Positions 7,971-32,000 of a DNA stretch of 32,000 bases are shown piece after piece; within the stretch, counting starts at the first letter, position 1, and each line of letters begins with the position of its first letter. The stretch spans positions 1 to 32,000 of the forward strand of contig NZ_JACJQY010000037.1 of assembly GCF_014696925.1 (NCBI RefSeq). Direction: 5' to 3'. A program made the position numbers and the translations under genes. The DNA comes from Phormidium tenue FACHB-1050 (GTDB taxonomy: Bacteria > Cyanobacteriota > Cyanobacteriia > Pseudanabaenales > Pseudanabaenaceae). The notes under the pieces were generated by a model. It worked only from the letters and a program-made list of their open reading frames with translations. It had not been told where the DNA came from and ran no database searches.

Positions 7971-8348
7971 ATGCTAAATTCTTCTGCACTTTCTTTTGAT
8001 CACTTGCCGACTTGCGATCTCCATGCGATCGCTCCTGAAGCATTACAGGATTTAGTTAATGCGATTTTGCCAGTTGAGAAAGCGCAAAGTATGGCGGAAT
8101 TTTTTGGAATGTTGAGCGATCCTAATCGTTTGCGGATTCTCTCAGTTTTATCCAAGCAGGAATTATGTGTTCACGATCTCGCGGCAGTAGTGGGCATGAG
8201 TGAGTCGGCTGTATCTCATCAGTTGCGAGTTTTACGCACCATGCGTTTAGTTAGCTATCGCAAAAGTAAGCGCAAAGTCTATTACCAACTCCTCGACCAC
8301 CATGTTTTAGATCTTTATCGCTCCGTTTCTGAACATTTAGATGAATAG
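7971..8348 (+). CDS. smtB: ArsR/SmtB-family metal-sensing repressor
   Basis: w[30 protein letters not shown]-terminal [19 protein letters not shown] resembles the alpha5 Zn site. Confidence 0.85.
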
Positions 8349-8467
8349 GCAACATAATCCGCTTTGCGCCGTATATTGCCTTGTAAAACAACTTTTTGTC
8401 TGGTTGTGAATTCGCCGTGCTAACCTTGTAGCAAATTTTTTATCCTGCTGACCTCTTCAAATAGCCA

Positions 8468-10567
8468 ATGGAAATAACATCATCCTTAGATGCAAATCCA
8501 CTATTAACACCAAGCCAAGATTCGAGTACAGATGCAGGTACGGATGCGAATCAAACCTCTCGTTTGCCTAATCATCGCTTGAGTGCGCCTACTAGCAAGC
8601 CTACTTTGGTGCTGGAATCTTCACCAAGTATTTTGACTGAGGAATTAGCAGGAATCAAACTTTCCCATACCAAACAAAAAGGGGATTGCTTATATCTCTA
8701 TAGTCAAGATCGAGAAGTCAACTGTGCAACCAAGATAATTGAAGCGATCGCCCCAAGCACACAGGATTTAGACAGTTCAGTTTTATATGCTGAAGGAATC
8801 CATCGCCTGAAATTGCATGGCAATGCATGGGCGTTAGGACTAGATTTACCGATCGCCCCATCGGCACTCATTGCTGCTGAAATTATCGCCGCATTATTGA
8901 CCAACTTCCGTCAAGATCAGCAACTAGCACCAAAACTTGCTCAAACTAAGCTGAAGTTGCTGCTCCAAAATAACTGTCTCAATTTACTGTGTGAGACGCG
9001 CACTGCGATTTTGCAAGCAGAGATCGCGCTGCCTATGTTAAATACTTTGCGAGCCGTGAGTGCATCAGAATATTTTCAATCAGTAACAGTGTCCAGCCGC
9101 GTTATCGGTGAGAAAAAACCGAGTTGGTCGTTTGAAATTGACTTGCTAGCGATCGGTTTGCAGAACTCTAATGATGACGAACTATCAGCGATAGAGAATG
9201 AACAAGAGCAAAGTATTGAGTTTATTAGTGAAGATGTAGAGGAAGCTAATGCTTGGCAGAAACTAAGCGGCTATGCAGGGACGAAAATACTTGCGGTCGG
9301 ACAAGCCATTTTTGGATTGAAATGGCTAGGGCAAACTGAACCGAAAATGCTCTCTTTATCTGCTTGTATGGCAAGTTTGGCGATCGGTATTGGTACAACA
9401 ATTGTGGCTGATCGGACGCTGAGTAATTATGCTCAGTCCGATCAGTCAGCCAAACTGATCATTGCTGATTCCAAAATTGATGAGTCAGTAAACCAACCCG
9501 AAACTTCTTCCGAAAAAGGGTTTACCAATAAACCTGCTCCTAATTTTAATATTGCTTTATTCAATGAGAAATTAGCCCTCCTTGATTGGCAGACTACTAA
9601 TAAGCGATCGCCCGAAGTTTTAATTGTGGGTAGTTCGAGAGCTTTGCGGGGCATCGAACCAAAAACCTTAGAAAAAACGCTGAGCAACAAAGGCTACAAA
9701 AATGTCAGCGTCTTTAATCTCGGTATTGATGGCGCAACCGCTAAGGTGGTGAACTTGCAAATTACGCAAATACTCTCACAATCTCAAAGACCGCGTTTAA
9801 TTATTTGGGCTGATGGATTGAGAGCTTTTAATAGTAGTCGCAATGATCTTACCTATGAGGAAATTACGGCTTCGGTTGGCTATAAGCAATTGCAGGAAAC
9901 TCTCAAAGATAAAGAGCGGAATCTTGATCCTATAGCTAATCAAAGTGCGATCGCTGCTACCACAGCACCAAATCCGATCGCTACATCCTTTGATCTTCTT
10001 TTTACGACCTTTTCCAAACGGCAAGAAATTCGGACTTCGTTAGTCCAGAAATTTGATCGAAATACGCATATGCTCAGCAATAGCGAAGCCCTGATTGCGG
10101 CGACCATGCCCAGCACCGTTACAGCCCTTGACCCCAAAGGCTTTGTTGCATTTGATGTCACCTTCGATCCCAACACCTATTTTCAAAAATTCCCCCAAGT
10201 TCCTGGGGATTACGATCTGGACTATCGCAACTTTGAGACCAATGGCTCCCAATTCGAGGCTTTTGCCAATGTAGTTGATTTTTGTCGCCGCAATAATATT
10301 GAGCTTTTGGTCGTGAATATGCCCTTACATGCCACCTATCTCGATCAAATTCGTACTCAATATGAAGCTATTTTCAATGGTCGAATGCAAGAACTCGCCT
10401 TACGTGAAGGCTTTACCTATCTTGATCTTTCCCAAGCGATTATCAATCAATCCGACCTTTTTTCAGACCCCAGCCACTTAAACAAAAAAGGGGCGATCGC
10501 TATCTCTCAACTGCTTGCTCAAAATCCCAAAGTCCGATGGCAAGTCCTCACTAAGAACGGGAAATAG
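8468..10567 (+). CDS. Membrane-associated protein with C-terminal SGNH/DUF1574-like domain and unknown N-terminal half
   Basis: 699 aa. TM region around aa 270-315. C-terminal blocks LIVGSSRALRGI, GIDGATA, LLVVNMPLH, DPSHLNKKGA resemble DUF1574 / AlgX-J-like SGNH proteins. Confidence 0.5.
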   Translation: MEITSSLDANPLLTPSQDSSTDAGTDANQTSRLPNHRLSAPTSKPTLVLESSPSILTEELAGIKLSHTKQKGDCLYLYSQDREVNCATKIIEAIAPSTQDLDSSVLYAEGIHRLKLHGNAWALGLDLPIAPSALIAAEIIAALLTNFRQDQQLAPKLAQTKLKLLLQNNCLNLLCETRTAILQAEIALPMLNTLRAVSASEYFQSVTVSSRVIGEKKPSWSFEIDLLAIGLQNSNDDELSAIENEQEQSIEFISEDVEEANAWQKLSGYAGTKILAVGQAIFGLKWLGQTEPKMLSLSACMASLAIGIGTTIVADRTLSNYAQSDQSAKLIIADSKIDESVNQPETSSEKGFTNKPAPNFNIALFNEKLALLDWQTTNKRSPEVLIVGSSRALRGIEPKTLEKTLSNKGYKNVSVFNLGIDGATAKVVNLQITQILSQSQRPRLIIWADGLRAFNSSRNDLTYEEITASVGYKQLQETLKDKERNLDPIANQSAIAATTAPNPIATSFDLLFTTFSKRQEIRTSLVQKFDRNTHMLSNSEALIAATMPSTVTALDPKGFVAFDVTFDPNTYFQKFPQVPGDYDLDYRNFETNGSQFEAFANVVDFCRRNNIELLVVNMPLHATYLDQIRTQYEAIFNGRMQELALREGFTYLDLSQAIINQSDLFSDPSHLNKKGAIAISQLLAQNPKVRWQVLTKNGK

Positions 10568-19253: not shown

Positions 19254-19308
19254 TAGGACAAATCAAAACTCAAGAAGCGAGTGGTGGCGCTTCTTGGGTT
19301 TGTATCCT
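19254..19308. mobile_element. MITE-like palindrome, internally deleted copy C
   Basis: AGGACAAATCAAAACTCAAGAAGCGAGTGGTGGCGCTTCTTGGGTTTGTATCCT. Confidence 0.5.
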
Positions 19309-19463: not shown

Positions 19464-19518
19464 AGTAACTTTTGCATAACTTTTGCATAACTTTTGCATA
19501 ACTTTTGCATAACTTTTA
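19464..19518 (+). repeat. Tandem 11-bp array, 5 units (nnTAACTTTTn)
   Basis: AGTAACTTTTG then CATAACTTTTG x3 then CATAACTTTTA. Confidence 0.95.
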
Positions 19519-19996: not shown

Positions 19997-21574
19997 ATGT
20001 CTAAAATTAGCAGACGTACAGCAATGCGTCTCGGACTCGGTGCTGGTGGTACAGCGATCGCCTCAGCAGCGTTCAGCAATCTTGGTTATGCCCAAGTTTT
20101 TTCTGATGATAGTTCGTATAGGTCACGTAGTCTACCACCGTTTTATGCTCGTGACTTTCGCTACCAGTCTCCGCTTCTACCAGTTCGTAGTGATAGCAAC
20201 ACGGACTACTACGAAATCAGGATGCAGAAAGGCTCCGCTGAGATTTTACCAAATATTCAAACCGAAATTTGGGGCTACAGTGGCATGGTGCCAGGTCCAT
20301 TGATCTATCAGCAACTAGGTCGCCAGTCTGTCGTTCGCTTCATTAATAATCTTGGTACAGATAGCCAAAATCGGAAAATTCATACATCAGTTCATTTGCA
20401 TGGCAGTGCCTCTCTCCCTCAATACGATGGATGGGCTGATGATATTACTAATCCTGGACAATACAAGGATTATATCTTTCCAAACAACCGCGCTGCGACA
20501 TTGTGGTATCACGATCATGGCGTACATCGGACAGCAGTAAATGCTTACATGGGACTAGCAGGCAATTATATTGTCGCCGATCCCAACGAAAATCCCAATA
20601 TTCCCAAAGGTGAATTTGATGTTCCAATTGTCTTGTCAGATAAACTTTTGGCTCGCAATGGCAGGATTGTTTACGCGGATAGCGGCGAAAAAGATGTTTT
20701 TGGAGATATCGTTTTAGTCAATGGTGTGCCTTGGCCGCGCATGGCAGTCAAACGTACTAAGTATCGGTTTCGTTTTTTAAATACGGGGATTTCTAGATCC
20801 TATACATTGAGACTGAGCAACGGTCAACCTTTGACTGTAATTGCTTCTGATGCTGGGCTGTTGCCATCTCCAGTGCAAACGCCTACTCTCATGATTGGTG
20901 TTGGCGAACGCTATGAGCTGGTGATTGATTTTGCCAGTTACCCAGCAGGTACTCAAATTGAGCTTCTCAGCAACGCAGTGGAGAACGATAGCCCCTTTGC
21001 CAGTACGCGGAAAATCATGCGGTTTGATGTAAGTGGTGGAGCCGTGTCTCATAACCCACCTTTACCAATCTTACTGCGTAATGATGGTTTCGATTTTAAT
21101 CGCAAACGTCAGGAATTATTATCTCGTGTTGTTCGTCGTCGCGAGTTTGTGTTCGGAAAGGATAACCTTCAGGACCAATGGACGGTTAATGGTCGCACTT
21201 GGGCGAATGGAGGGCTTGAGGCAAACCCTAGAGTAGGTGACGTGGAGATATGGAAATTTGTGAATGGCGGTGGTGGATGGCATCACCCAATTCATGTCCA
21301 CCTCGTCGATATGCTGATCTTAAGTCGCAACAAGCGACGTAAAGTGCAACCCTATGAAATGGGTTGGAAGGACGTATTTTACTTGGATGAAGGAGCGGAT
21401 ATCGAGGTTGTCGCTCAGTTTGGTCCCCATAATGGCAAGTATATGATGCACTGTCACAACTTGGTTCATGAAGATCACGATATGATGCGGGCTTTTGAAG
21501 TTGGTCAGGGTGGTCCAGATCCCGTAACAACTGCTCCTGCAAAGCCATATAACTCTAGCGTTCCACCACTCTAA
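19997..21574 (+). CDS. Tat-exported three-domain multicopper oxidase (CotA/bilirubin-oxidase-like)
   Basis: Twin-arginine SRRTAMRLGLGAGG. Copper ligand blocks HLHG, WYHDH, HPIHVHL, HCHNLVHEDHDMM. Confidence 0.9.
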   Translation: MSKISRRTAMRLGLGAGGTAIASAAFSNLGYAQVFSDDSSYRSRSLPPFYARDFRYQSPLLPVRSDSNTDYYEIRMQKGSAEILPNIQTEIWGYSGMVPGPLIYQQLGRQSVVRFINNLGTDSQNRKIHTSVHLHGSASLPQYDGWADDITNPGQYKDYIFPNNRAATLWYHDHGVHRTAVNAYMGLAGNYIVADPNENPNIPKGEFDVPIVLSDKLLARNGRIVYADSGEKDVFGDIVLVNGVPWPRMAVKRTKYRFRFLNTGISRSYTLRLSNGQPLTVIASDAGLLPSPVQTPTLMIGVGERYELVIDFASYPAGTQIELLSNAVENDSPFASTRKIMRFDVSGGAVSHNPPLPILLRNDGFDFNRKRQELLSRVVRRREFVFGKDNLQDQWTVNGRTWANGGLEANPRVGDVEIWKFVNGGGGWHHPIHVHLVDMLILSRNKRRKVQPYEMGWKDVFYLDEGADIEVVAQFGPHNGKYMMHCHNLVHEDHDMMRAFEVGQGGPDPVTTAPAKPYNSSVPPL

Positions 21575-21636
21575 ATGCGGCTGTAACCGTAAAACTAAAG
21601 CCACCAGAAATGATTTTCCGTTTGGAAGTTTGCCAT

Positions 21637-22491
21637 ATGATGTTTTCCCAAAGATTAGTCCAAATTGCCAAGGCTGGAACCATCGTGCTGACTTTGCTCT
21701 TTACGATGTTTGTGGTGATGCCATCATCCGCGATCGCTAGTGGTCATGGTCATGGAGAAGGACATAAGCGTGTGCCTAATTTTGAATATCCCTATCCGAT
21801 CTCCCAACGGCGGATCGATGCGGAACAACTTCTTAATCAAGGATTGAGCAAGGCTTATCAGCTCGATCTTCAGGGTGCGATCGCCGATTTAATTGAGGCG
21901 ACCAAAATCGATCCTACTGATGAAGATGCGTTTCGCTATCTGGGCGATGTTTACGTTGAGGCTGGCAATTTTACAGATGCGATCGCTGCTTATTCCTCTG
22001 CATTACGCTATCGTCCAGGCTTCTCGCATTTGTACAACAGTCGAGGTGAGGCTCACTTAGCGCTGAAGGAATATGATCTTGCGATCCGCGATTTCACGCG
22101 AGCGATTTCTGTCTATCCAGGTGAACCAAGAGGACACTACAACCGCAGTGTTGCCTATCGCAATATCAAAAGCTATGTCTTGGCGCTTAATGATTTACAG
22201 AATGCAATCCGTACTAGCAATCACACCTATGTAGATGCCTTTATTGATCGCAGTAAAATTCGGCAGATTTTAGGTGATGTCAAAGGTGCGATCGAAGACT
22301 ATCAAACTGCATCACTGTTGTTAGAGTCTCAGCCCGAAGAATTTCTCAATCAAGAAGACTTTGCAAACTATCAAAAGCTTCAAGTTGAGTATCAAAATAC
22401 AATTCAGACTGCTGAAGATATTAAGACAAAATTGCTCAGTAATTGTGATGAGCAACCAAATTTTATCGTAGATCAAAATCAATTTTCTTAA
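21637..22491 (+). CDS. Secreted/anchored TPR-repeat protein with His-rich GHGHGEGH N-terminus
   Basis: Hydrophobic leader ...VVMPSSAIASG, then GHGHGEGH. At least 4 TPR units (e.g. AFRYLGDVYVEAGNFTDAIAAYSSALRYRP). Starts a few tens of nt after the MCO stop. Alternative start at 21610. Confidence 0.75.
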   Translation: MMFSQRLVQIAKAGTIVLTLLFTMFVVMPSSAIASGHGHGEGHKRVPNFEYPYPISQRRIDAEQLLNQGLSKAYQLDLQGAIADLIEATKIDPTDEDAFRYLGDVYVEAGNFTDAIAAYSSALRYRPGFSHLYNSRGEAHLALKEYDLAIRDFTRAISVYPGEPRGHYNRSVAYRNIKSYVLALNDLQNAIRTSNHTYVDAFIDRSKIRQILGDVKGAIEDYQTASLLLESQPEEFLNQEDFANYQKLQVEYQNTIQTAEDIKTKLLSNCDEQPNFIVDQNQFS

Positions 22492-22501
22492 TGACTGATG
22501 T

Positions 22502-22627
22502 TACGTGGAAGCTTCCAATTCCCTCATTCCTAGTCCTTCTCCCTAAAGTGTAGATGGGAATAAGAAATTAGTCTTGCTCCCTCTCTCCCATCAAGGGATA
22601 GGGTGATGGTGGTGAGGGTTCCACGTA
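22502..22627. repeat. ~126-bp imperfect palindromic element
   Basis: Terminal inverted repeats TACGTGGAA / TTCCACGTA and CCCTCA / TGAGGG. Internal CTCTCCC...GGGATAGGG motifs. Confidence 0.55.
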
Positions 22628-22678
22628 GTTAATGAGAACTATGAATAAATGTGTCAACTCTGATGTGGAAATAAAAAA

Positions 22679-23080
22679 ATGAGAACAAATATAATTGACT
22701 CACTAAAAAGGATTAGTAATTTCGGGAAGCTAATTGCTATCTCGATTTTTACGCTATTGGTGCTGATGGTTGCTTTGAAAACAACCGATGGTGCTGAGTC
22801 TAGACCATCAAATGTTAGTCATTCTGAGGCTTCGGACTCGTTGTGCTATATGGTGACTTCCAAAGGTAAAGTGGTCGATCTCATGCATTTATGCAAGCAG
22901 AGCAATCCCACTAACTTAACTTCAGCATCCCAATCTCCCACGTTTGGCGTTTATCCCCAAATTGCTCGCGGACCGCAATCATATGCCAATTATAAGGGGG
23001 CTTTGTCTTATCCATCTCCACCCAACATTTACAACTATCAAGCGATGAACAATTTTGATAATCAGTTGTACGGCAACTAG
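22679..23080 (+). CDS. Small membrane-anchored/secreted hypothetical protein with LCYM..G..VDL..LC motif
   Basis: 133 aa. TM LIAISIFTLLVLMVAL. The Cys-bracketed motif is recurrent in small cyanobacterial exoproteins (from memory). Confidence 0.45.
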   Translation: MRTNIIDSLKRISNFGKLIAISIFTLLVLMVALKTTDGAESRPSNVSHSEASDSLCYMVTSKGKVVDLMHLCKQSNPTNLTSASQSPTFGVYPQIARGPQSYANYKGALSYPSPPNIYNYQAMNNFDNQLYGN

Positions 23081-23148
23081 ATTTATTTCCATCAAAAAAG
23101 GCGTGGTGCAAAAACTCTGGAGAGTTTCAAGATGCGACGTATGGTAGG

Positions 23149-23266
23149 TATAGCAATGTAAGTTTTGCTTAGGACATTAAACCCAAAAGATGAGTGGCGG
23201 CGCTTCGCGCCGCCACTCATCTTTTGGGTTTTGATTTTTGTCCGAGCTATCTCTTACATTGCTATA
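23149..23266. mobile_element. MITE-like nested palindrome, copy D (most complete)
   Basis: Perfect 14-nt termini TATAGCAATGTAAG / CTTACATTGCTATA. Central GATGAGTGGCGGCGCTTCGCGCCGCCACTCATC hairpin. Confidence 0.75.
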
Positions 23267-23347
23267 GTACGACTGCGCTACGGACTCCGCAAATCCTTGG
23301 AGATGTCGTTTATCCTTAAAACCCTTTCCAGACTTTTCCGCAATACT

Positions 23348-23378
23348 AAGGGCATACCCAGTGGGTATGCCCTTTTTT
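23348..23378 (+). terminator. Strong plus-strand intrinsic terminator
   Basis: GGGCATACCC-AGT-GGGTATGCCC followed by TTTTTT. Confidence 0.75.
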
Positions 23379-23910
23379 GATGGGAAGAAATCAATTGAGA
23401 TCTCTTTAATAAATGCGATCGCATTCTATAAATTCAGATGAAACTTTATTTCATCCTTAAATCTACACATCATTTAGATTTCGTAGTAGAAAGATAGCAT
23501 TTACACTTAACTAGTAAGTAATACCTAGTAATAATTAACTCCACATAATTACAAAACAAAATGAAAGTTTATAAAATTTATTGTATGTGTAATATAAATT
23601 TTGAAAATTTTATATTTAATTTTAAATAGTCACTTAGTAAAGAAAAAATTTACAAATATATAAACATAAAAAATAAACTTGCATAAGTAATCACTAATAA
23701 TTATCATCACGATTTATCTATATAAAAAATAGCCCTTTTGAAAGGTTGTTTTTCATTGATATTACATATACTTAACTCTATAGCTATTCAAGAAAATATT
23801 AGATGTTAAAAAAAAGAGATAACTTGCAGGATAAGCATATACAAAGCGATGTACGACTTGCTTTTGTCTGTTTAGAAGCTCAGTAAAACAACATCTATTA
23901 ATAATTTGCT

Positions 23911-24031
23911 GATAACTTTCAAGTAACTTTCAAGTAACTTTTTACTAACTTTCAAGTAACTTATTTGTAACTTTTTACTAACTTTCAAGTAATTTTCTGA
24001 TAACTTTTTACTAACTTATTGGTAACTTTTA
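23911..24031 (+). repeat. Tandem 11-bp array, 11 units (nGTAACTTTnn), with 33-bp higher-order periodicity
   Basis: GATAACTTTCA AGTAACTTTCA AGTAACTTTTT ACTAACTTTCA AGTAACTTATT TGTAACTTTTT ACTAACTTTCA AGTAATTTTCT GATAACTTTTT ACTAACTTATT GGTAACTTTTA. Confidence 0.95.
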
Positions 24032-24412
24032 ACGGTTGAATTTCTCAGCAAATTCAGCATTAATACGTTCATTCGCTAAACCTAGTGTGTAATTAATTTT
24101 GCAAAATAAATCACTCAAATCTGTAAATTTGCCCCCTCATATGAACATGGTTTACGGATTTATATTTGAAATTAATTGTGCCTAGTTGCTATTGCCTTGC
24201 TCTTGGAAAATCTATTGTGATACTTCCATTCTCTTCAGGATTACTGTTAAAAATACTCTCCGTAATTCCATTTTCTTTAACTTTTATTGCTGATTTCTTT
24301 GGAATTACGATGAATTTTATAGGGTTTTACTTATTGAGAATAGACAGTACTTTGCTCGACCTCTATCTCCATCAATCTTCAGCAAATTTATTGCAGTTAA
24401 GGGTTTAACGTT

Positions 24413-27400
24413 ATGGCATCTAGTTTTATCGTCAACAAAGCAGACCTCGAAAAAATCCTGTTTCAAATCAAGATCGCTGAGGATAGCTCCATCGGCTACC
24501 AGTCAGTGTCGGAAACTAAGACAATTCTTCAGTCGATCATGGATGCGTATGGTATTTCCGCCGCCAATGCAGCGCAGTTGCCTGCTGGTCTACGCACCGT
24601 CGATGGCACCTTCAACAGCCTCATCCCAGGGCGGAGCACGATCGGTGCGGCAGACACGCTATTTCCTCGCTTGACCGATCCAGTGTTCGTTAATGATGCT
24701 GATGGCGACCAGATGTCGTTTGGAGTTCCAAATGCGCCAGTCATCACAAATAATAACTACGATCCCCGCCTTAGTAGTACAAACCCACCTGAAGTCAATC
24801 CAGCTAGTGTTGCTGATGCCGATCCGCGCATTATTTCCAATTTGATCTCGGACATGTCTGTCAACAACCCAGCCGCGATCGATGCTTACTTTAATAACCC
24901 GTTGTCCCTCGCTCAGTTTGAAGCAGATCATCCCGGCATGATTCCAGTCAAGCCAGGCGATCTTCGGGCAGGAACTGGTAATTACCTTGCTATTACCAAT
25001 GCCGACCTCCAAACAATCCCCAACCAGTCCCCCGACATCGGGTTATCGTCTGGTTTCAACTCTTGGATGACCATCTTCGGTCAATTCTTCGACCACGGGC
25101 TCGATCTCGTTACCAAAGGCGGCAACGGCACAGTATATATTCCACTACAGGAGGACGATCCCCTGGTTGCAGGCAAAGATGGGCTCTTTAACACCGCCGA
25201 CGATCTCCCGCCGCAGCTCCGATTCATGGCGCTGACCCGCGCGACAACAACGATTGTGGATGGTGTTCCGCAGCACGAGAACAAGACAACCTCATGGATC
25301 GACCAGAACCAAACCTACACCTCTCATGCCTCGCATCAAGTGTTCCTGCGCGAATACAAGAGAGTCCCTGATCAGATAACCAACGCACCCGTAACGATCG
25401 CAACTGGTAAAGTACTTGATGGTTCGCTTGCAGGTTCGGTCTCTAACTGGGGTGAAGTCAAGGCGAATGCTAAGACCTATTTGGGCATCATCCTCAGTGA
25501 TTTCGATGTCCACAACGTGCCACTGCTACTGACTGATCAATACGGTAAATTCATTCCAGGAGCCAATGGCTATGCTCAAGTAGCCACTACCACTGGCTTT
25601 GTTGAGGGAACAGCAGCAGGCTTGGTTCTGCCTGCCAACACAGTTCGCACTAACCACGCATTCCTCGATGACATTGCCCACCATGCAGTACCTGGATTCT
25701 ATAGAAACAGTTCAGGAGATCTAGTCCCACAAACTGCGGACACAGATCCTGGTGTCGGCGACGATAACGATGCTACGACCTACGACGATGAAATGTTGAA
25801 CTCACATTTCATCACGGGTGACGGACGCGGCAACGAGAACATTGCGCTGACCGCAGTTCACTCCATCTTCCACTCCGAGCACAATCGTCTTGTCGAAGCA
25901 AATAAAGCAACCATTCTTGCGTCGAACGATCTGGATTTCCTAAATGAGTGGTTGCGAATTGACGTTACGGCAGTTCCGACCGCACCCAGTGATATTGCGG
26001 CTTTGGAATGGGATGGCGAACGCCTGTTTCAGGCAGCTCGATTCACCAATGAAATGCAATACCAGCATTTAGTGTTTGAAGAATTCGCACGCCGCATTCA
26101 GCCGATGATCGATCCTTTCGTCTTCAACAACAGCCCCGACATCGACCCATCAATCGTGGCGGAGTTTGCCCACACGGTGTATCGCTTCGGACATTCGATG
26201 CTAACTGGCACAGTTGATCGCTTAGAGAACGACCTGACGACCGTCAACGGAGAACCTGATCAGAAGACATTGCTGGCAGCGTTTCTTAACCCACAGGCCT
26301 ACATCGCCAGCGGAGCGGATATAGCAACCATCAACGCCAACCTAGTCCGAGGCTTGACCCGTGACGTAGGCAGCGGGATCGACGAGTTCATCGTGGACGA
26401 CTTGCGCAGCAATCTCTTGGGACTGCCGCTCGACCTTGGTGCGCTCAACATTGCCCGTGGTCGTGAAACTGGCGTTCCCTCGCTCAATGAAACCCGCAGG
26501 CAACTCTACGAAGGCACTGGCTTAGCTGACCTCAAGCCCTACACCAGCTGGGTTGATTTTTCCTTGAACATCAAAAACCAGCTCTCGGTTATCAACTTCA
26601 TCGCGGCTTACGGTACACATACGAGCATCACCTCACAATCAACCGTTGCTGGCAAACGGGCGGCAGCAGAGGAACTCGTCTTCGGTACAGAGGCTGACGG
26701 TATTACACCTTCGGACATAACTGATCGCCTCGACTTCCTGAACGCCACAGGCGCTTATGCTGGTGGCGATTTGGGTGGACTCAATCTGGTCGATTTCTGG
26801 ATCGGCGGGCTTGCCGAAGCGAATCCCGAATTCGGCGGCATGTTGGGTAGTACCTTCAACTTTGTGTTTGAATCCCAGATGGAGAACCTGCAAAACGGCG
26901 ATCGTTTCTACTATCTGAGCCGTACTCAGGGCATGAACTTGCTCAACCAGCTAGAGCCAAATACCTTCGCCGACATGGTGATGCGCAACACCGCGCTCGG
27001 CGACAAGTATGCGACCCATTTAAATGGATTTCTGTTCGTCACACCAGACTATATCCTCGAGCTAGATCGGGGCATTGCACAGGAAGACTATAACGGGACT
27101 GCCGCTGGCAAGGATCCGCTTGGAGGCACTCTCTTTAATCCCAAAGTTCAGCGCGACTACACAGGCAGCAGCATCGTCGATGGAAACCACGATTTCGGCG
27201 GTACTCTAAGGTTTACTGGTGGCGAACATGTTGTGATCGGCGGTACTGAAGGTAACGACAAACTATACAGCGACAAGGGTGACGATACCCTATGGGGCGA
27301 TGGTGGCAATGACTACATCAATGGTGGCGCTGGTGCTGACAACGTCTTCGGCGGCGAAGGCGACGACATTATCGAAGATCCATTTGGGGATGATATGTTG

Positions 27401-30400
27401 CGTGGTGAACAGGGCAACGATGTCATCACCAGTTCCCGTGGCTTGGATCTGATATTTGGTGACCAAGGTACCGACTATATCGTACTAGGTCAGGATGGTA
27501 GCGAAGTCTTCGCAGGTGCTGACGACGACTTCGTCCTTGGTGGTACTGGCGGCGACTTTCTGCTAGGCAATGAGGGCAGCGACTGGATCGAAGGCGGAGC
27601 TGGCTTCGACACACTGGCGGGTGACAACTCGGAACTGTTCTTCAACAGCCCGATCCTCGGTCATGATGTGTTATTCGGTCAGGGCGACGAAACCGACTAC
27701 GACGCAGAATCAGGCGACGATATCATGGGTTCTGGCGCGAGTGTCTACCGCTATGAAGGGATGTTCGGCTTTGACTGGGGCATTGCTAAGTACGACAACT
27801 CGCCCATTAAGTTCGACCTGAATTTCAATCTCGCTGCTCTCGGCACTCCGAACGATGTCTTACGCGATCGCTTTGATAACGTGGAAGCATTATCAGGTTG
27901 GAGGAATAATGACGAACTGTTTGGCGACGATCGCGGTCATGTTGCAGGTGCATCTCCCATCGCTTTCGATCCCGTCACCGCAGACCAACTGTTCTTCAGC
28001 ACTTTGCCGTTGGCTAATGCTCCTGCTGGGGCGATCGATGTATTGTTCAACAACTTGCTAACCAATGAGGGTGTTGATCGGATCACTGGCTTCAGAACTT
28101 GGTTTGGCGGCGCAGCAGTTACGCTCAACACCGTGGCTGGTACTGGCGCTGGCGACACATTCTTCCGCGATGGCAATATCCTTATGGGTGGCGACGGCAA
28201 CGATATCATCAAGGGACGTGGTGGTTTCGACATCATTGATGGCGATGCTTGGTTGAACGTGCGGATTAAAATCGACATCAACGGCACGATCTACTCGGCT
28301 GATTCGATGAGCAATGATACTACCGTTATGGGGCAATATGCTGGCAAGGTCTTTAACACCAACTCAGACGGCAGCCCAAATTACAGCAGTCCAGCCTTTG
28401 GCGGTGCATCGCTCACATCGTTGCTGCTAAACCGAACCATCAATCCTGGTCAGATGACCATCGTCCGTGAGATCTTGACCGACAATACCGACCTCACGGG
28501 TCTTAACAAAAACATCGACACCGCCGTCTTCCAAGGCAACTTCGCAGAATATGAAATTGAGGGCTTTAATACGCTCGGTCGGGCAACTGATGTCAATGGT
28601 GATGGTTTCATCTATGTCCGCGATCTCGACAATGGTGTCACCCGTCCTCCTGTTGTTGATCCGCTAACGGGCGTTGCTAGGATAGTCTCTGACGACACCG
28701 ATCTGATCAAGAACATCGAGCAGCTCCAGTTCGCCGATGTGACCATCCGTCTTGATGTTGTAGCGCCAACCGACATTCAGTTTAATGGTGTCACTCCAGC
28801 AGCAGGAAATGCATTTCCGCTTGCAGGTACGACGATCGCAACCCTGAGTACGACGGATGCCAATACGACCACGGGATTTGACTACTCGTTGTTGGTTGCG
28901 GGTAGCAGCGCTGGCTTTGCGGTAAGTCAGACAGGTGTTGTTACTGCCACAGCCAATATGGTTGGAAATCAGATCTACACACTTAACATCAGATCTACAA
29001 ATACAACAACAGGCGCTTTCCGCATTGAAACCTTTGAGATCAGAACTGGTGGTAATGGCGGAGGCGCTGATGCACTCACCGTAAATCCAGCGACCAACTT
29101 TGACAACATCATGTATGGCAATGCTGGCAACGACACGCTCAACGGTGGCACTCGCAACGACACCCTGTTCGGTCAGGATGGCAACGACACGCTCAACGGC
29201 GGCGATGGCAATGACACCTTGAACGGTGGTGCTGGTGTTGACAACCTGAACGGTGGCGCTGGCAACGACATATTGGTTGGTGGCGCTGGCAACGACATTG
29301 TAAACGGTGGTGCTGGCAACGACACAATCCGCTATACGGTCGATGCTGATCGTACCGACACGATCGATGGTGGTGCCGACAACGATACGCTGGTACTCAC
29401 TGGACGCGCTGGCACTCTCAACGAAAACCTTGCCGTGACATTCGACGGAACTGCCCTCAATGCGGTTGAAGGTGGCTCTGTGTCCAACGTTGAGTCTGTA
29501 ACCGTAGATCTGGGCGATGGCATCGATACTTTGACCTACGTCACTATCTCTGGAGTGCCAGTAGGAGTTACGGTTGATCTCGCTAATGGAACTGCGTCGG
29601 GATTCACCTCGGTCGCTAACATCGAGAACGTGACGGGTAACGGCGGAGCCGACAACATTACGGGCGATGCTAACAACAACGTCCTGAGCGGTGGTGGCAA
29701 CAACGACATCATCAGCGGTGGTGCTGGTAATGACACGATTAATGGCGGTATTGGCACTGACACAGTCGTAGAATCTGGCGATTTCAACTTTGTCCTGACT
29801 AATAACCAACTGACAGGCAACGGTACTGATACCCTAATCAGTATCGAACAGGCTATCTTGACTGGTGGTTCTGGCAACAATACCTTTAACGTATCTGGTT
29901 TCGGCGGTACAGTCACGATTAATGGAGGTGATGGCACTGACACATTAATAGATTCAGGGAATGTTAACTTTGTCTTGTCCGACACTACCCTAACGGGCAA
30001 CGGTACTGACACGCTAACTTCCATCGAACTGGCTACTTTGACAGGCGGTGGTGGCAACAACACCATTAACGCATCTGGTTTCAGCGGTGCTGTCACCCTC
30101 AACGGTGCTGGTGGCAACGATACCTTGACGGGTGGCAATGGCGCTGACACCCTCATCGGTGGTACTGGCAATGACTCTGTCATCGGTGGCACAGGCAACG
30201 ACACAATTCGCTATACGGTCGATGCGGACGGAACCGACACGGTAAATGGTGATGCCGACAGCGATACGCTGGTGCTCACTTCCAACGGCGGCAACCAAAA
30301 CCTCACCGTAACATTCAACGGAACCTCAATCACCAACTTTGAAGGCGGAACAGTTACCAACGTCGAGTTTATAACTGCTGATCTGGGTGCTGGTGCTGGT

Positions 30401-31090
30401 GATACCCTGACCTACAATGCGCCAGGCGGTGTCACAGTCAATCTATCTACTGGAACTGCATCTGGGTTCATCTCAAGCGCATCTGGGTTGCCTGCGATCG
30501 CCAACATTGAGAACGTGACCAGTAATGGTGGCATCGACAGCCTGTTTGGCGATCTCAATGCCAACGTGTTGAATAGTGGTGGTGCCGACGACACAATCGA
30601 CGGCGCGGGCGGAAACGACACGATAAACGGCGGTCTGGGTGCTGACAGACTTACAGGCGGTTTGGGTGTTGATACTTTCGTCTTTCAGTTTGGTCAGTCT
30701 CAGGTGAACCTCGGATTCGATAGAATTACCGACTTTACTTTTGGTACTGATAGAATTGATTTGCTCACAGGTGGAGGAAATGCCACTTCTGCTCCCCTTA
30801 GCTTTAGTCGTGCGGCTGACAATAGCACTGCATCGACCTTGCAGCTTCTTGCTCAGTCAGTCTTTAACGATGCTAACGGTTTGCTTGCAGGGAACCAAGC
30901 ATTGGCAGCCAACAGTGCTGCCATTGTAAGCACCACAGCAGCAAGTGCGCTTGGAGTTGGAACTTACCTCATTATTAACGATGGTACTGCTGGATTCAAT
31001 ACTAATAACGATCTGTTTATTAATATCACTGGATACCAAGGCGCACTCCCCGGACTAGGCACAATCACACCAAATAGTGTCTTTGCTTAG
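24413..31090 (+). CDS. Giant animal-heme-peroxidase / RTX Ca-binding repeat protein (peroxicin, MopA-like), probable T1SS substrate
   Basis: 2225 aa. Distal-His block FGQFFDHGLDL, proximal-His block AVHSIFHSEHNRL, LDLGALNIARGRETGVPSLNE. Several GGxGxDxL nonapeptide blocks, a cadherin/Ig-like segment and a non-repeat C-terminal tail. No N-terminal signal peptide. Confidence 0.92.
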   Translation: MASSFIVNKADLEKILFQIKIAEDSSIGYQSVSETKTILQSIMDAYGISAANAAQLPAGLRTVDGTFNSLIPGRSTIGAADTLFPRLTDPVFVNDADGDQMSFGVPNAPVITNNNYDPRLSSTNPPEVNPASVADADPRIISNLISDMSVNNPAAIDAYFNNPLSLAQFEADHPGMIPVKPGDLRAGTGNYLAITNADLQTIPNQSPDIGLSSGFNSWMTIFGQFFDHGLDLVTKGGNGTVYIPLQEDDPLVAGKDGLFNTADDLPPQLRFMALTRATTTIVDGVPQHENKTTSWIDQNQTYTSHASHQVFLREYKRVPDQITNAPVTIATGKVLDGSLAGSVSNWGEVKANAKTYLGIILSDFDVHNVPLLLTDQYGKFIPGANGYAQVATTTGFVEGTAAGLVLPANTVRTNHAFLDDIAHHAVPGFYRNSSGDLVPQTADTDPGVGDDNDATTYDDEMLNSHFITGDGRGNENIALTAVHSIFHSEHNRLVEANKATILASNDLDFLNEWLRIDVTAVPTAPSDIAALEWDGERLFQAARFTNEMQYQHLVFEEFARRIQPMIDPFVFNNSPDIDPSIVAEFAHTVYRFGHSMLTGTVDRLENDLTTVNGEPDQKTLLAAFLNPQAYIASGADIATINANLVRGLTRDVGSGIDEFIVDDLRSNLLGLPLDLGALNIARGRETGVPSLNETRRQLYEGTGLADLKPYTSWVDFSLNIKNQLSVINFIAAYGTHTSITSQSTVAGKRAAAEELVFGTEADGITPSDITDRLDFLNATGAYAGGDLGGLNLVDFWIGGLAEANPEFGGMLGSTFNFVFESQMENLQNGDRFYYLSRTQGMNLLNQLEPNTFADMVMRNTALGDKYATHLNGFLFVTPDYILELDRGIAQEDYNGTAAGKDPLGGTLFNPKVQRDYTGSSIVDGNHDFGGTLRFTGGEHVVIGGTEGNDKLYSDKGDDTLWGDGGNDYINGGAGADNVFGGEGDDIIEDPFGDDMLRGEQGNDVITSSRGLDLIFGDQGTDYIVLGQDGSEVFAGADDDFVLGGTGGDFLLGNEGSDWIEGGAGFDTLAGDNSELFFNSPILGHDVLFGQGDETDYDAESGDDIMGSGASVYRYEGMFGFDWGIAKYDNSPIKFDLNFNLAALGTPNDVLRDRFDNVEALSGWRNNDELFGDDRGHVAGASPIAFDPVTADQLFFSTLPLANAPAGAIDVLFNNLLTNEGVDRITGFRTWFGGAAVTLNTVAGTGAGDTFFRDGNILMGGDGNDIIKGRGGFDIIDGDAWLNVRIKIDINGTIYSADSMSNDTTVMGQYAGKVFNTNSDGSPNYSSPAFGGASLTSLLLNRTINPGQMTIVREILTDNTDLTGLNKNIDTAVFQGNFAEYEIEGFNTLGRATDVNGDGFIYVRDLDNGVTRPPVVDPLTGVARIVSDDTDLIKNIEQLQFADVTIRLDVVAPTDIQFNGVTPAAGNAFPLAGTTIATLSTTDANTTTGFDYSLLVAGSSAGFAVSQTGVVTATANMVGNQIYTLNIRSTNTTTGAFRIETFEIRTGGNGGGADALTVNPATNFDNIMYGNAGNDTLNGGTRNDTLFGQDGNDTLNGGDGNDTLNGGAGVDNLNGGAGNDILVGGAGNDIVNGGAGNDTIRYTVDADRTDTIDGGADNDTLVLTGRAGTLNENLAVTFDGTALNAVEGGSVSNVESVTVDLGDGIDTLTYVTISGVPVGVTVDLANGTASGFTSVANIENVTGNGGADNITGDANNNVLSGGGNNDIISGGAGNDTINGGIGTDTVVESGDFNFVLTNNQLTGNGTDTLISIEQAILTGGSGNNTFNVSGFGGTVTINGGDGTDTLIDSGNVNFVLSDTTLTGNGTDTLTSIELATLTGGGGNNTINASGFSGAVTLNGAGGNDTLTGGNGADTLIGGTGNDSVIGGTGNDTIRYTVDADGTDTVNGDADSDTLVLTSNGGNQNLTVTFNGTSITNFEGGTVTNVEFITADLGAGAGDTLTYNAPGGVTVNLSTGTASGFISSASGLPAIANIENVTSNGGIDSLFGDLNANVLNSGGADDTIDGAGGNDTINGGLGADRLTGGLGVDTFVFQFGQSQVNLGFDRITDFTFGTDRIDLLTGGGNATSAPLSFSRAADNSTASTLQLLAQSVFNDANGLLAGNQALAANSAAIVSTTAASALGVGTYLIINDGTAGFNTNNDLFINITGYQGALPGLGTITPNSVFA

Positions 31091-31561: not shown

Positions 31562-32000
31562 ATGAAATTAGTCTTTGAATGTTATAAAAAAACTGTTGCG
31601 GCGAGATGCATCCTGCAAGGAATCGCGCTTCTATCCATACCATTCTTCGCAGATTCTCTCTCCGCTCAACCAATTACAACAGCCACAGATGGAACGAATA
31701 CCGTCGTACTGCAAAATGGACAACGCTTCGACATTACAGGTGGAACTCAAGCAGGCGAAAATCTTTTCCACAGCTTCCAACAGTTTGGACTGAATCAGGG
31801 ACAAATCGCCAATTTCCTCAGCCAACCAAATATTCAAAACATTCTCAGCCGCGTAGTTGGTGGCAACCCTTCCGTAATTAACGGGCTAATTCAACTCACG
31901 GGAGGAAATTCCAATCTCTACATCATGAATCCCGCAGGCATAATCTTTGGAGCCAACGCCAGTTTAAACGTCCCAGCAGCTTTTACCGCTACGACAGCAC
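31562..32000 (+). CDS. TPS-domain (filamentous haemagglutinin N-terminal) exoprotein, 5' part only
   Basis: My translation is [85 protein letters not shown]...[53 protein letters not shown]. It carries NLFHSF and NPAGI (NPNGI-like) TPS motifs. The ORF runs off the window, so it is absent from the ORF track. Confidence 0.8.

Follow-up and report, generated by a model that had tools for sequence, protein, structure and literature searches.

A conserved multicopper oxidase cassette beside a putatively acquired RTX heme peroxidase in Pseudanabaena: a possible extracellular oxidizing pair

Mn(II) oxidation by phototrophs is documented, and we know of no enzymes assigned to it. The question is raised by a 32,000-nucleotide stretch of cyanobacterial DNA (NZ_JACJQY010000037.1, positions 1 to 32,000, deposited as Phormidium tenue FACHB-1050; here called the window), in which genes for a multicopper oxidase (MCO) and an RTX animal-heme peroxidase lie on one strand within 11 kb. 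Do these two enzymes belong to one extracellular oxidation system, and is Mn(II) its substrate? An earlier note on this DNA had proposed a single co-regulated module of four genes. The reading favored here, tentatively, is a native operon for the MCO, a TPR protein, and a small secreted protein, accompanied by an acquired peroxidase gene; the two are probably under common control through phased TAACTTT boxes and would supply an extracellular oxidizing pair, for which Mn(II) is the foremost candidate substrate.

Gene content and source of the window

Four plus-strand open reading frames (ORFs) were confirmed (Table 1), separated by gaps of 36, 187, and 1,332 nt. The families given in the earlier note (MCO, TPR protein, small Cys protein, and 2,225-aa peroxidase) were upheld, as was its claim that all four products are secreted, the latter as a prediction from signals and RTX repeats. 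Metagenomic contigs match the window at 97.5% identity over 19 kb, and Pseudanabaena minima CP159508.1 matches it at approximately 92% identity at the nucleotide level. The gene order pilT-pilC-miaA...MCO-TPR-small...peroxidase is entire in P. minima and in metagenomic Pseudanabaena contigs. These identities and the common synteny assign the window to a Pseudanabaena species. Relatives were reached through homologues of the small protein and comprise P. minima (L209) and six metagenomic contigs (L209-L215 together).

Table 1. Coordinates of features at the oxidase locus, in window positions
Feature	Position	Strand	Basis
Array 1, 4.7 perfect 11-bp units TAACTTTTGCA, 480 bp 5' of the MCO start codon	19466..19517	+	Tandem Repeats Finder (TRF) score 104, 100% match
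Tat-signal three-domain MCO, bilirubin oxidase/CotA type, 525 aa	19997..21574	+	Pfam, copper motifs, PDB search
Sec-signal TPR protein, His-rich mature N terminus	21610..22491	+	TPR Pfam families; 36 nt 3' of MCO
Small secreted protein, 133 aa, third member of the trio	22679..23080	+	Homologues follow TPR gene
Nested palindromic element resembling a miniature inverted-repeat transposable element (MITE), end of MCO-TPR-small unit	23080..23392	.	Inverted repeats and terminator scan
Array 2, 10.7 units, 11-bp period, core TAACTTT, 383 bp 5' of the peroxidase start	23913..24030	+	TRF scores 103, 161
RTX animal-heme peroxidase ("long peroxicin," MopA-like), 2,225 aa	24413..31090	+	An_peroxidase and HemolysinCabind Pfam
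Peroxidase catalytic domain, aa 215-862	25055..26998	+	Alignment to PDB 8s6c
Shorter RTX block, aa 941-994	27233..27394	+	Same basis as main RTX region
Main RTX nonapeptide region, aa 1562-2121	29096..30775	+	Pfam, NCBIfam, PDB CyaA RTX matches
C-terminal "bluetail" domain, aa 2163-2224, putative surface/sorting	30899..31084	+	NCBIfam NF041519

A conserved MCO cassette

The MCO N terminus, MSKISRRTAMRLGLGAGGTAIASAAF (MSKISRRTAMRLGLGAGG...), carries an S-R-R twin-arginine motif with a hydrophobic stretch behind it. Among homologues, R6 and R7 hardly vary, and the protein is predicted to be exported by the Tat pathway. Its Cu-oxidase_3 (residues 77-197), Cu-oxidase (250-313), and Cu-oxidase_2 (390-504) domains all score above the Pfam cutoffs, and the copper motifs are HLHG (133-136), WYHDH (170-174), HPIHVH (430-435), and HCHNLVHEDHDMM (485-497), with an axial Met. 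Across 24 aligned sequences, there is no variation at the copper-motif residues H133/H135/G136, W170/H172/H174, H430/H433/H435, and H485/C486/H487/H491/M496. The Tat-signal MCO with four copper blocks described in the earlier note is borne out by this N terminus and by the three domains and four motifs. Its third-codon-position GC content (GC3) of 0.395 is typical of the genome.

The closest match in a PDB search was Myrothecium bilirubin oxidase (BOD; E value of 1e-103, 350 bits), ahead of CotA (1e-65, 225 bits) and CueO (approximately 149 bits). In NCBIfam, the best match was CueO (2e-66), at 225 bits against a cutoff of 525, and the CueO, PhsA, and FtsP models all fall far below their cutoffs. 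CueO-type copper detoxification was ranked low as a role for the MCO on these NCBIfam and PDB scores. By sequence, the enzyme is of the three-domain BOD/CotA type and is not MnxG-like. The claim that both bacterial classes of Mn(II) oxidase meet at this locus is weakened on the MCO side, as the enzyme is probably not of the MnxG, MofA, or McoA type; on the peroxidase side, the assignment to a MopA-like family is upheld. The MCO shares with CotA and Myrothecium BOD three cupredoxin domains, four copper motifs, and the axial Met; it differs from them in its Tat signal and in being encoded in a conserved operon together with a TPR protein that is rich in His and a small protein that is secreted, neither of which is known as a partner of CotA or BOD.

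The TPR protein consists of a signal peptide ending in AIA, the segment SGHGHGEGH, and TPR repeats, and its start codon is likely Met10 or Met11. A His-rich TPR protein with a signal peptide agrees with the earlier note, which placed the mature N terminus at GHGHGEGH; the predicted start is instead SGHGHGEGH. This N terminus is probably metal binding. The small protein has an N-terminal hydrophobic segment, two conserved Cys residues, the motif CYMxTxxGxxxDLxxxC, and a Tyr-rich C-terminal tail, SYPxPPNxYxYxAMxxFDxxLYG[DN], and it has no Pfam or NCBIfam match.

A TPR gene lies directly 3' of the MCO gene in loci L081, L082, L207, L208, L007, and L209-L215. Beyond the Pseudanabaena loci, these MCO relatives come from a Logan contig (70% identity), a Microcoleaceae metagenome-assembled genome (MAG; 67%), Almyronema (62%), a JGI contig (55%), and Stenomitos frigidus. 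The TPR homologues have a His cluster ahead of a conserved (K/R)RxPxF(D/E)YPYP segment. A homologue of the small protein follows the TPR gene in L081, L082, L207, and L209-L215; Stenomitos (L007) keeps the small gene in inverted orientation, on the opposite strand, and the JGI contig (L208) has the MCO and TPR genes only, without a small-protein homologue. The full trio is found in Pseudanabaena, the Microcoleaceae MAG, the Logan contig, Almyronema, and Stenomitos. Because the TPR and small genes recur beside the MCO gene across lineages of filamentous cyanobacteria, the sequences define the trio as a conserved, uncharacterized cyanobacterial cassette.

In the Microcoleaceae MAG (L081, 6402-8474), a divergent gene 5' of the cassette encodes a 690-aa CCP_MauG di-heme cytochrome c peroxidase. 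In this MAG, the MCO-TPR-small cassette adjoins a peroxidase of another family.

An RTX heme peroxidase of probable foreign origin

The peroxidase matches An_peroxidase (E value of 1e-55) and contains nine HemolysinCabind stretches (4e-46) as well as RTX and serralysin-type stretches in NCBIfam. Its C terminus matches the bluetail model NF041519 (2e-16; 59.6 bits against a cutoff of 21). The motifs that define the peroxidase-cyclooxygenase superfamily are set out in PMC4420034, as are the long peroxicins, proteins of 1,600 to 3,300 aa with hemolysin-type Ca-binding repeats. Aligned with the solved bacterial enzyme PDB 8s6c, the heme pocket is complete: GQFFDH (distal Gln/Asp/His), GDGRGNE (Arg/Glu), RFGHS (proximal His), and RGRETGVP.

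The protein resembles the Mn(II)-oxidizing MopA/Roseobacter-type RTX peroxidases (family 5 of the superfamily) in having one An_peroxidase domain with this complete pocket, Ca-binding repeats, a very large size, and no N-terminal signal peptide. Its first approximately 1,000 aa are 48 to 70% identical to mostly proteobacterial RTX heme peroxidases, a range measured against members other than the studied MopA proteins; these homologues include Rhodobacterales, Methylobacterium, Pseudomonas, and the Mn oxidizer Leptothrix discophora (48%). The differences are its cyanobacterial host, as the family is placed in Proteobacteria (PMC4420034), and the combination of a single catalytic domain with a cyanobacterial bluetail C terminus.

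The GC3 of the peroxidase gene is 0.55 (0.57 in the catalytic domain), compared to 0.34 to 0.45 in 17 other window genes, and its best long homologues are on proteobacterial contigs of 65% GC that also carry flagellar genes. The outlying GC3 and the origin of these homologues suggest that the gene is a proteobacterial long peroxicin that was probably acquired horizontally. In L. discophora (L216, 15107-20424), the homologue is followed by genes for a TolC-like OEP, an ABC transporter, and HlyD/AprE-type proteins, a dedicated type I secretion system (T1SS), which supports type I secretion for the peroxidase family; the window gene differs in having no such operon adjoining it. By analogy, the Pseudanabaena peroxidase is probably exported by type I secretion and retained at the surface or released.

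The 380-nt leader of the peroxidase gene contains an 80-aa ORF (24166-24408) that ends 5 nt before the start codon. With a TTG start and a hydrophobic, low-complexity translation, it is probably noncoding and was rejected as a gene.

Two transcription units with shared phased repeats

In the MITE-like element that closes the MCO-TPR-small unit, inverted repeats of 22 nt on the outside enclose a perfect 25-bp hairpin. Within it lie two strong plus-strand terminator-like hairpins (23182-23228 and 23348-23374); the terminator scan gave 14 hairpins compared to 3.6 expected. The element is followed by an AT-rich spacer (31% GC), so that approximately 1.3 kb separates the small gene from the peroxidase gene. 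The P. minima locus has three transposase ORFs (DDE_Tnp_1 and IS66 families; L209, 10508-12803) between the small gene and array 2. Because terminators, the AT-rich spacer, and, in P. minima, these ORFs intervene, the peroxidase gene is, as judged from sequence, a transcription unit of its own, and the four genes do not make up a single operon. The single four-gene module of the earlier note is also contradicted by the trio occurring without the peroxidase in all other cyanobacterial lineages examined and by the foreign composition of the peroxidase gene. A related hairpin copy is found 5' of the MCO gene (19260-19301), and the P. minima MCO upstream region is approximately 700 bp longer, with extra copies of the hairpin MITE. 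Rfam returned zero family matches for the whole 32-kb window.

Phased TAACTTT arrays upstream of both oxidase genes, reported in the earlier note, were confirmed by TRF and core counts and are kept in congeners. That note began the locus at 19997, the MCO start; its gene coordinates (19997-31090) are correct, and array 1, beginning at 19466, falls outside them. TAACTTT occurs 23 times in the window, compared to 6.5 expected (maximum of 15 in 100 shuffles), and 13 of these copies are inside the two arrays. No other phased pair of cores was found in the 32 kb, even with one mismatch allowed per core. The arrays are alike in core, strand, phase, and approximate distance to the start codon; array 2 has variable 4-nt spacers and a 33-bp higher-order period. 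Their flanks have no other mutual similarity, which indicates that the arrays did not arise by segmental duplication.

All Pseudanabaena relatives have arrays at both places and none elsewhere in approximately 20 kb, with four to six units at the MCO gene and 6 to 11 at the peroxidase gene. The spacer of array 1 is homogenized to TGCA in the window and is TAAA, TAAG, or CAAG in relatives. Array 2 differs by one 33-bp block of three units between contigs that are approximately 97.5% identical (8 units in L211 and L212 versus 11 in L210 and the window), and in P. minima it stays approximately 430 bp from the peroxidase start despite the upstream insertion sequence (IS). Across 13 distinct array units, 7 of 91 core positions and 24 of 52 spacer positions depart from the majority (Fisher P = 2e-7). 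Since the core itself served to delimit the arrays, a degree of ascertainment bias attaches to this comparison.

[quoted passage not shown] Both arrays share the 11-bp period and at least three tandem units. The array box NNTAACTT equals CTTAACCT at six of eight positions and resembles the accepted variants CATAATCT and TTTAACTA. They differ from Pho boxes in having 5 to 11 units rather than approximately 3 and in having no pho genes nearby. The architecture is that of putative OmpR/PhoB-type response-regulator sites; an intrinsic bend from phased T-tracts, a contingency element of the variable-number tandem repeat (VNTR) type, and a neutral repeat family remain as other readings. A promoter scan found no convincing promoter or -10 element 3' of either array, with a count not above that in shuffles.

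A metagenome scan for three phased TAACTTT units yielded 120 contigs of 10 to 54% GC. Most carry perfect simple repeats, and some are iteron-like arrays on apparent phage or plasmid fragments. HIP1 sites, of which the window has 39, are nearly absent from these contigs, and none of the 120 is similar to the window outside the array.

MCO-peroxidase linkage in Actinomycetota

A genome scan with the MCO alignment provided 80 MCO loci (17 cyanobacterial and 63 noncyanobacterial), relatives of at most 50% identity among the matches listed, which were searched by tblastn with the peroxidase N terminus within 10 kb of the MCO homologue. Full-length peroxidase homologues (40 to 45% identity; 40 to 46% for the homologues of both enzymes) lie beside the MCO gene in 13 of the 63 noncyanobacterial loci, nearly all of them in Actinomycetota. 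By our arithmetic, a single-copy gene has a chance of approximately 0.3% of falling in a given 20-kb stretch, so that approximately 0.2 linked loci would be expected. The genes are divergent, in tandem, or a few kilobases apart. In Pilimelia columellifera (L039, 9971-16950), genes for an MCO, an S26 signal peptidase (4-nt overlap), and an An_peroxidase/RTX/fn3 protein form an operon. A neighbor-joining tree of the MCOs distributes the linked cases over at least five clades and nests the Pseudanabaena MCO in the cyanobacterial trio clade.

These comparisons place the actinobacterial linkage far beyond chance and indicate that the Pseudanabaena adjacency arose independently. Of the comparative evidence, this linkage speaks most strongly for a functional tie between the two families. 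Adjacency of the two enzymes, one part of the co-occurrence proposed as a check in the earlier note, is found in Actinomycetota and is missing from the cyanobacterial loci examined outside Pseudanabaena and from the loci of the closest peroxidases. The window MCO is 41 to 44% identical to the MCOs of Arthrobacter loci, and boxA of Arthrobacter has been described as a Mn(II)-oxidizing gene (bioRxiv 10.1101/2025.05.09.653071).

Literature searches returned only analyses of genome-level co-occurrence, and this neighborhood was not found described in them. In a 2026 study of rock varnish, 6 of 13 cyanobacterial MAGs received the annotation "McoA + An_peroxidase" (PMC13439051). What is new relative to that co-occurrence is the adjacency, the partner proteins, and the shared arrays.

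Possible function and relation to known systems

The favored reading gives the two units one extracellular task. Unit 1 would be the conserved cyanobacterial operon for a Tat-exported MCO, a Sec-exported His-rich TPR protein, and a small, disulfide-containing, Tyr-tailed protein; unit 2 would be the horizontally acquired long peroxicin with its intact catalytic site. One regulator may bind both arrays, by which the acquired peroxidase would have been recruited to the regulon of the native cassette, and the two independently transcribed units would probably be switched on together. Their joint task would be extracellular Mn(II) oxidation. The peroxidase may make superoxide or Mn(III), as the Roseobacter and MopA-type enzymes do, and the MCO may oxidize Mn(II) or Mn(III) with O2. 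The co-regulated extracellular oxidation module of the earlier note survives in its shared phased cis-element and plausible oxidase pair, distributed over two separate units.

A phenotype of this kind exists in the genus. Pseudanabaena sp. MBx9-1.cy, obtained from a Mn removal system, forms Mn oxides (Chaput et al. 2019, PMC6890756). Its cell-free filtrate does so too, and boiling, protease, and superoxide dismutase each abolish the activity, which led the authors to conclude that superoxide comes from an extracellular enzyme, soluble and unidentified; in Roseobacter AzwK-3b, the source of superoxide is a heme peroxidase (PMC6890756). By analogy, the RTX heme peroxidase of the window is an obvious candidate for a secreted, superoxide-producing, Mn-oxidizing protein, and cell-associated Mn oxidation may be due to the MCO cassette. 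CotA is described as having Mn oxidase activity (PMC3618234).

Pseudomonas putida GB-1 (MnxG, McoA, and MopA) likewise has both an MCO and an RTX heme peroxidase in one organism. It differs in MCO type, and the published analyses cover co-occurrence in the genome rather than adjacency or a shared cis-element. Regulation in GB-1 runs through the MnxS/MnxR pathway, of which no counterpart was identified at the window locus. The Bacillus Mnx complex, as described in PMC5622069, joins MnxG to MnxE and MnxF and is likewise an MCO operon with small noncatalytic partners. That likeness is one of concept only: in the window, an MCO of three rather than six domains is accompanied by a TPR protein and a 133-aa protein with two Cys residues. 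Literature searches turned up no characterized cyanobacterial system of this composition, in agreement with the earlier note.

Other genes of the window

Near the window's first positions, the gene for a 779-aa NB-ARC/STAND NTPase (447-2786) begins inside an ORF for a HicB-like antitoxin (146-466), a pair that may be associated with defense or a toxin-antitoxin function. At 7971-10567, an ArsR-family regulator, the sole transcription factor in the window and without a link to the oxidase genes, adjoins a 699-aa protein that has DUF1574, DltD, and SGNH-like regions. A gene for a TpsA-like exoprotein of two-partner secretion (Pfam TPS domain, E value of 9e-34) starts at 31562 and runs past the window end at 32000. 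It makes three consecutive genes that encode large secreted proteins, and it lacks a TAACTTT array on its 5' side.

Alternative explanations

The main rival to the favored reading is accidental adjacency, in which a foreign peroxidase gene landed in a repeat-rich spacer, the arrays belong to a genome-wide hypervariable repeat family without common control, and the two oxidases have separate roles. We consider this somewhat unlikely, and several observations weigh for it and against a functional pair. The pairing is confined to Pseudanabaena relatives in which the whole synteny is kept at 92 to 97.5% identity: adjacency is absent from approximately 22 cyanobacterial loci outside Pseudanabaena (including the 17 among the matches listed), no animal heme peroxidase lies within 10 kb of the L081, L082, L207, L208, and L007 cassettes, and none of five peroxidase contexts examined (L083-L086 and L216) has an MCO nearby. 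The peroxidase gene is a compositional outlier with proteobacterial best matches, so the adjacency is recent and could be an insertion accident. Terminators, the MITE, the 31% GC spacer, and the P. minima transposases divide the units, and both intergenic regions carry the hairpin MITE family, a second repeat family in common, and thus may merely collect dispersed repeats.

The arrays themselves are the most variable segment of regions that are otherwise 92 to 97% identical, like neutral VNTRs, with copy number varying among near-identical contigs, and similar 11-bp TAACTTT simple tandem repeats occur in unrelated metagenomic contigs. Their kept position in relatives was rejected as evidence of selection and says little, because the flanks are 92 to 97% identical. 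Arrays were not found 5' of MCO orthologues at 67 to 70% identity (L081 and L082) or of peroxidase homologues, and there were none in the first 86 loci. As response-regulator sites, they lie 380 to 500 bp from the start codon, compared to 48 to 303 bp for Pho boxes, and the base before TAAC is never T, so that TTAAC does not occur. No T1SS genes are found within the 32-kb window, although they may sit elsewhere in the genome. Nor can the MCO feed H2O2 to the peroxidase, because MCOs reduce O2 to water. What speaks against accident is that the only two arrays in 32 kb, with approximately 20 intergenic regions, are both 5' of oxidase genes (a placement that we estimate at approximately 0.06 by intergenic length alone), that the array core is far better conserved than the spacers, and that an independent linkage of these two enzyme families exists in Actinomycetota.

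Two further explanations change the substrate rather than the partnership, or dissolve it. A co-regulated pair with a substrate other than Mn might modify the extracellular matrix by oxidation (for instance, cross-link Tyr-rich proteins, of which the small partner is one, extracellular polymeric substances, or phenolic pigments) or provide defense by hypohalous acid or radicals; the TPR protein would be a scaffold to which the tail of the small protein binds. The peroxidase keeps the Asp and Glu to which heme is covalently linked in halogenating members of the family, BOD, the nearest solved structure to the MCO, oxidizes organic substrates, the small protein with its conserved Tyr-rich tail is encoded beside a TPR protein (a peptide-binding fold), and the next downstream gene encodes another large secreted protein. 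Tyrosine cross-linking by animal heme peroxidases and spore coat oxidases is established. Both an organic substrate and binding of the tail by the TPR protein are nevertheless conjectural, and the protein- and superoxide-dependent extracellular Mn oxidation of Pseudanabaena fits the peroxidase family; we regard this explanation as unlikely. Less likely again is that the trio serves periplasmic copper homeostasis, in which the MCO would be a CueO-like cuprous oxidase, the His-rich TPR protein would bind copper, and the small protein would be their partner, and that the peroxidase is irrelevant to it. The best NCBIfam match is indeed CueO, the MCO is predicted to be Tat exported, as CueO is, and the His-rich TPR N terminus is conserved in character across lineages. 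That match, however, reaches less than half its cutoff score, BOD and CotA are much closer in the PDB search, the MCO has no CueO-type Met-rich segment, and no cop or cus genes lie nearby in the window or in relatives. Copper homeostasis would also leave the shared arrays and the actinobacterial MCO-peroxidase linkage unexplained.

Implications

The locus offers concrete candidate genes for Mn oxidation in Pseudanabaena, namely, an RTX heme peroxidase and a Tat-exported MCO with two partners, and the MCO-TPR-small trio is a cyanobacterial cassette without an earlier description. The phased arrays provide a handle for finding the regulator and may exemplify the recruitment of an acquired gene to a host regulon. 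In its widest form, which we hold to be doubtful, the proposal is that BOD-type MCOs and RTX heme peroxidases are a two-enzyme extracellular redox pair joined at least twice in evolution, in Pseudanabaena and repeatedly, operons included, in Actinomycetota, that the acquired peroxidase was wired to the native regulon through boxes possibly responsive to phosphate or metal, and that the pair is the Mn oxide machinery of this phototroph. The neighborhood in Actinomycetota suggests that two Mn oxidase classes regarded as alternatives may cooperate; if so, the frequent co-occurrence of both classes in Mn oxidizers would be read differently.

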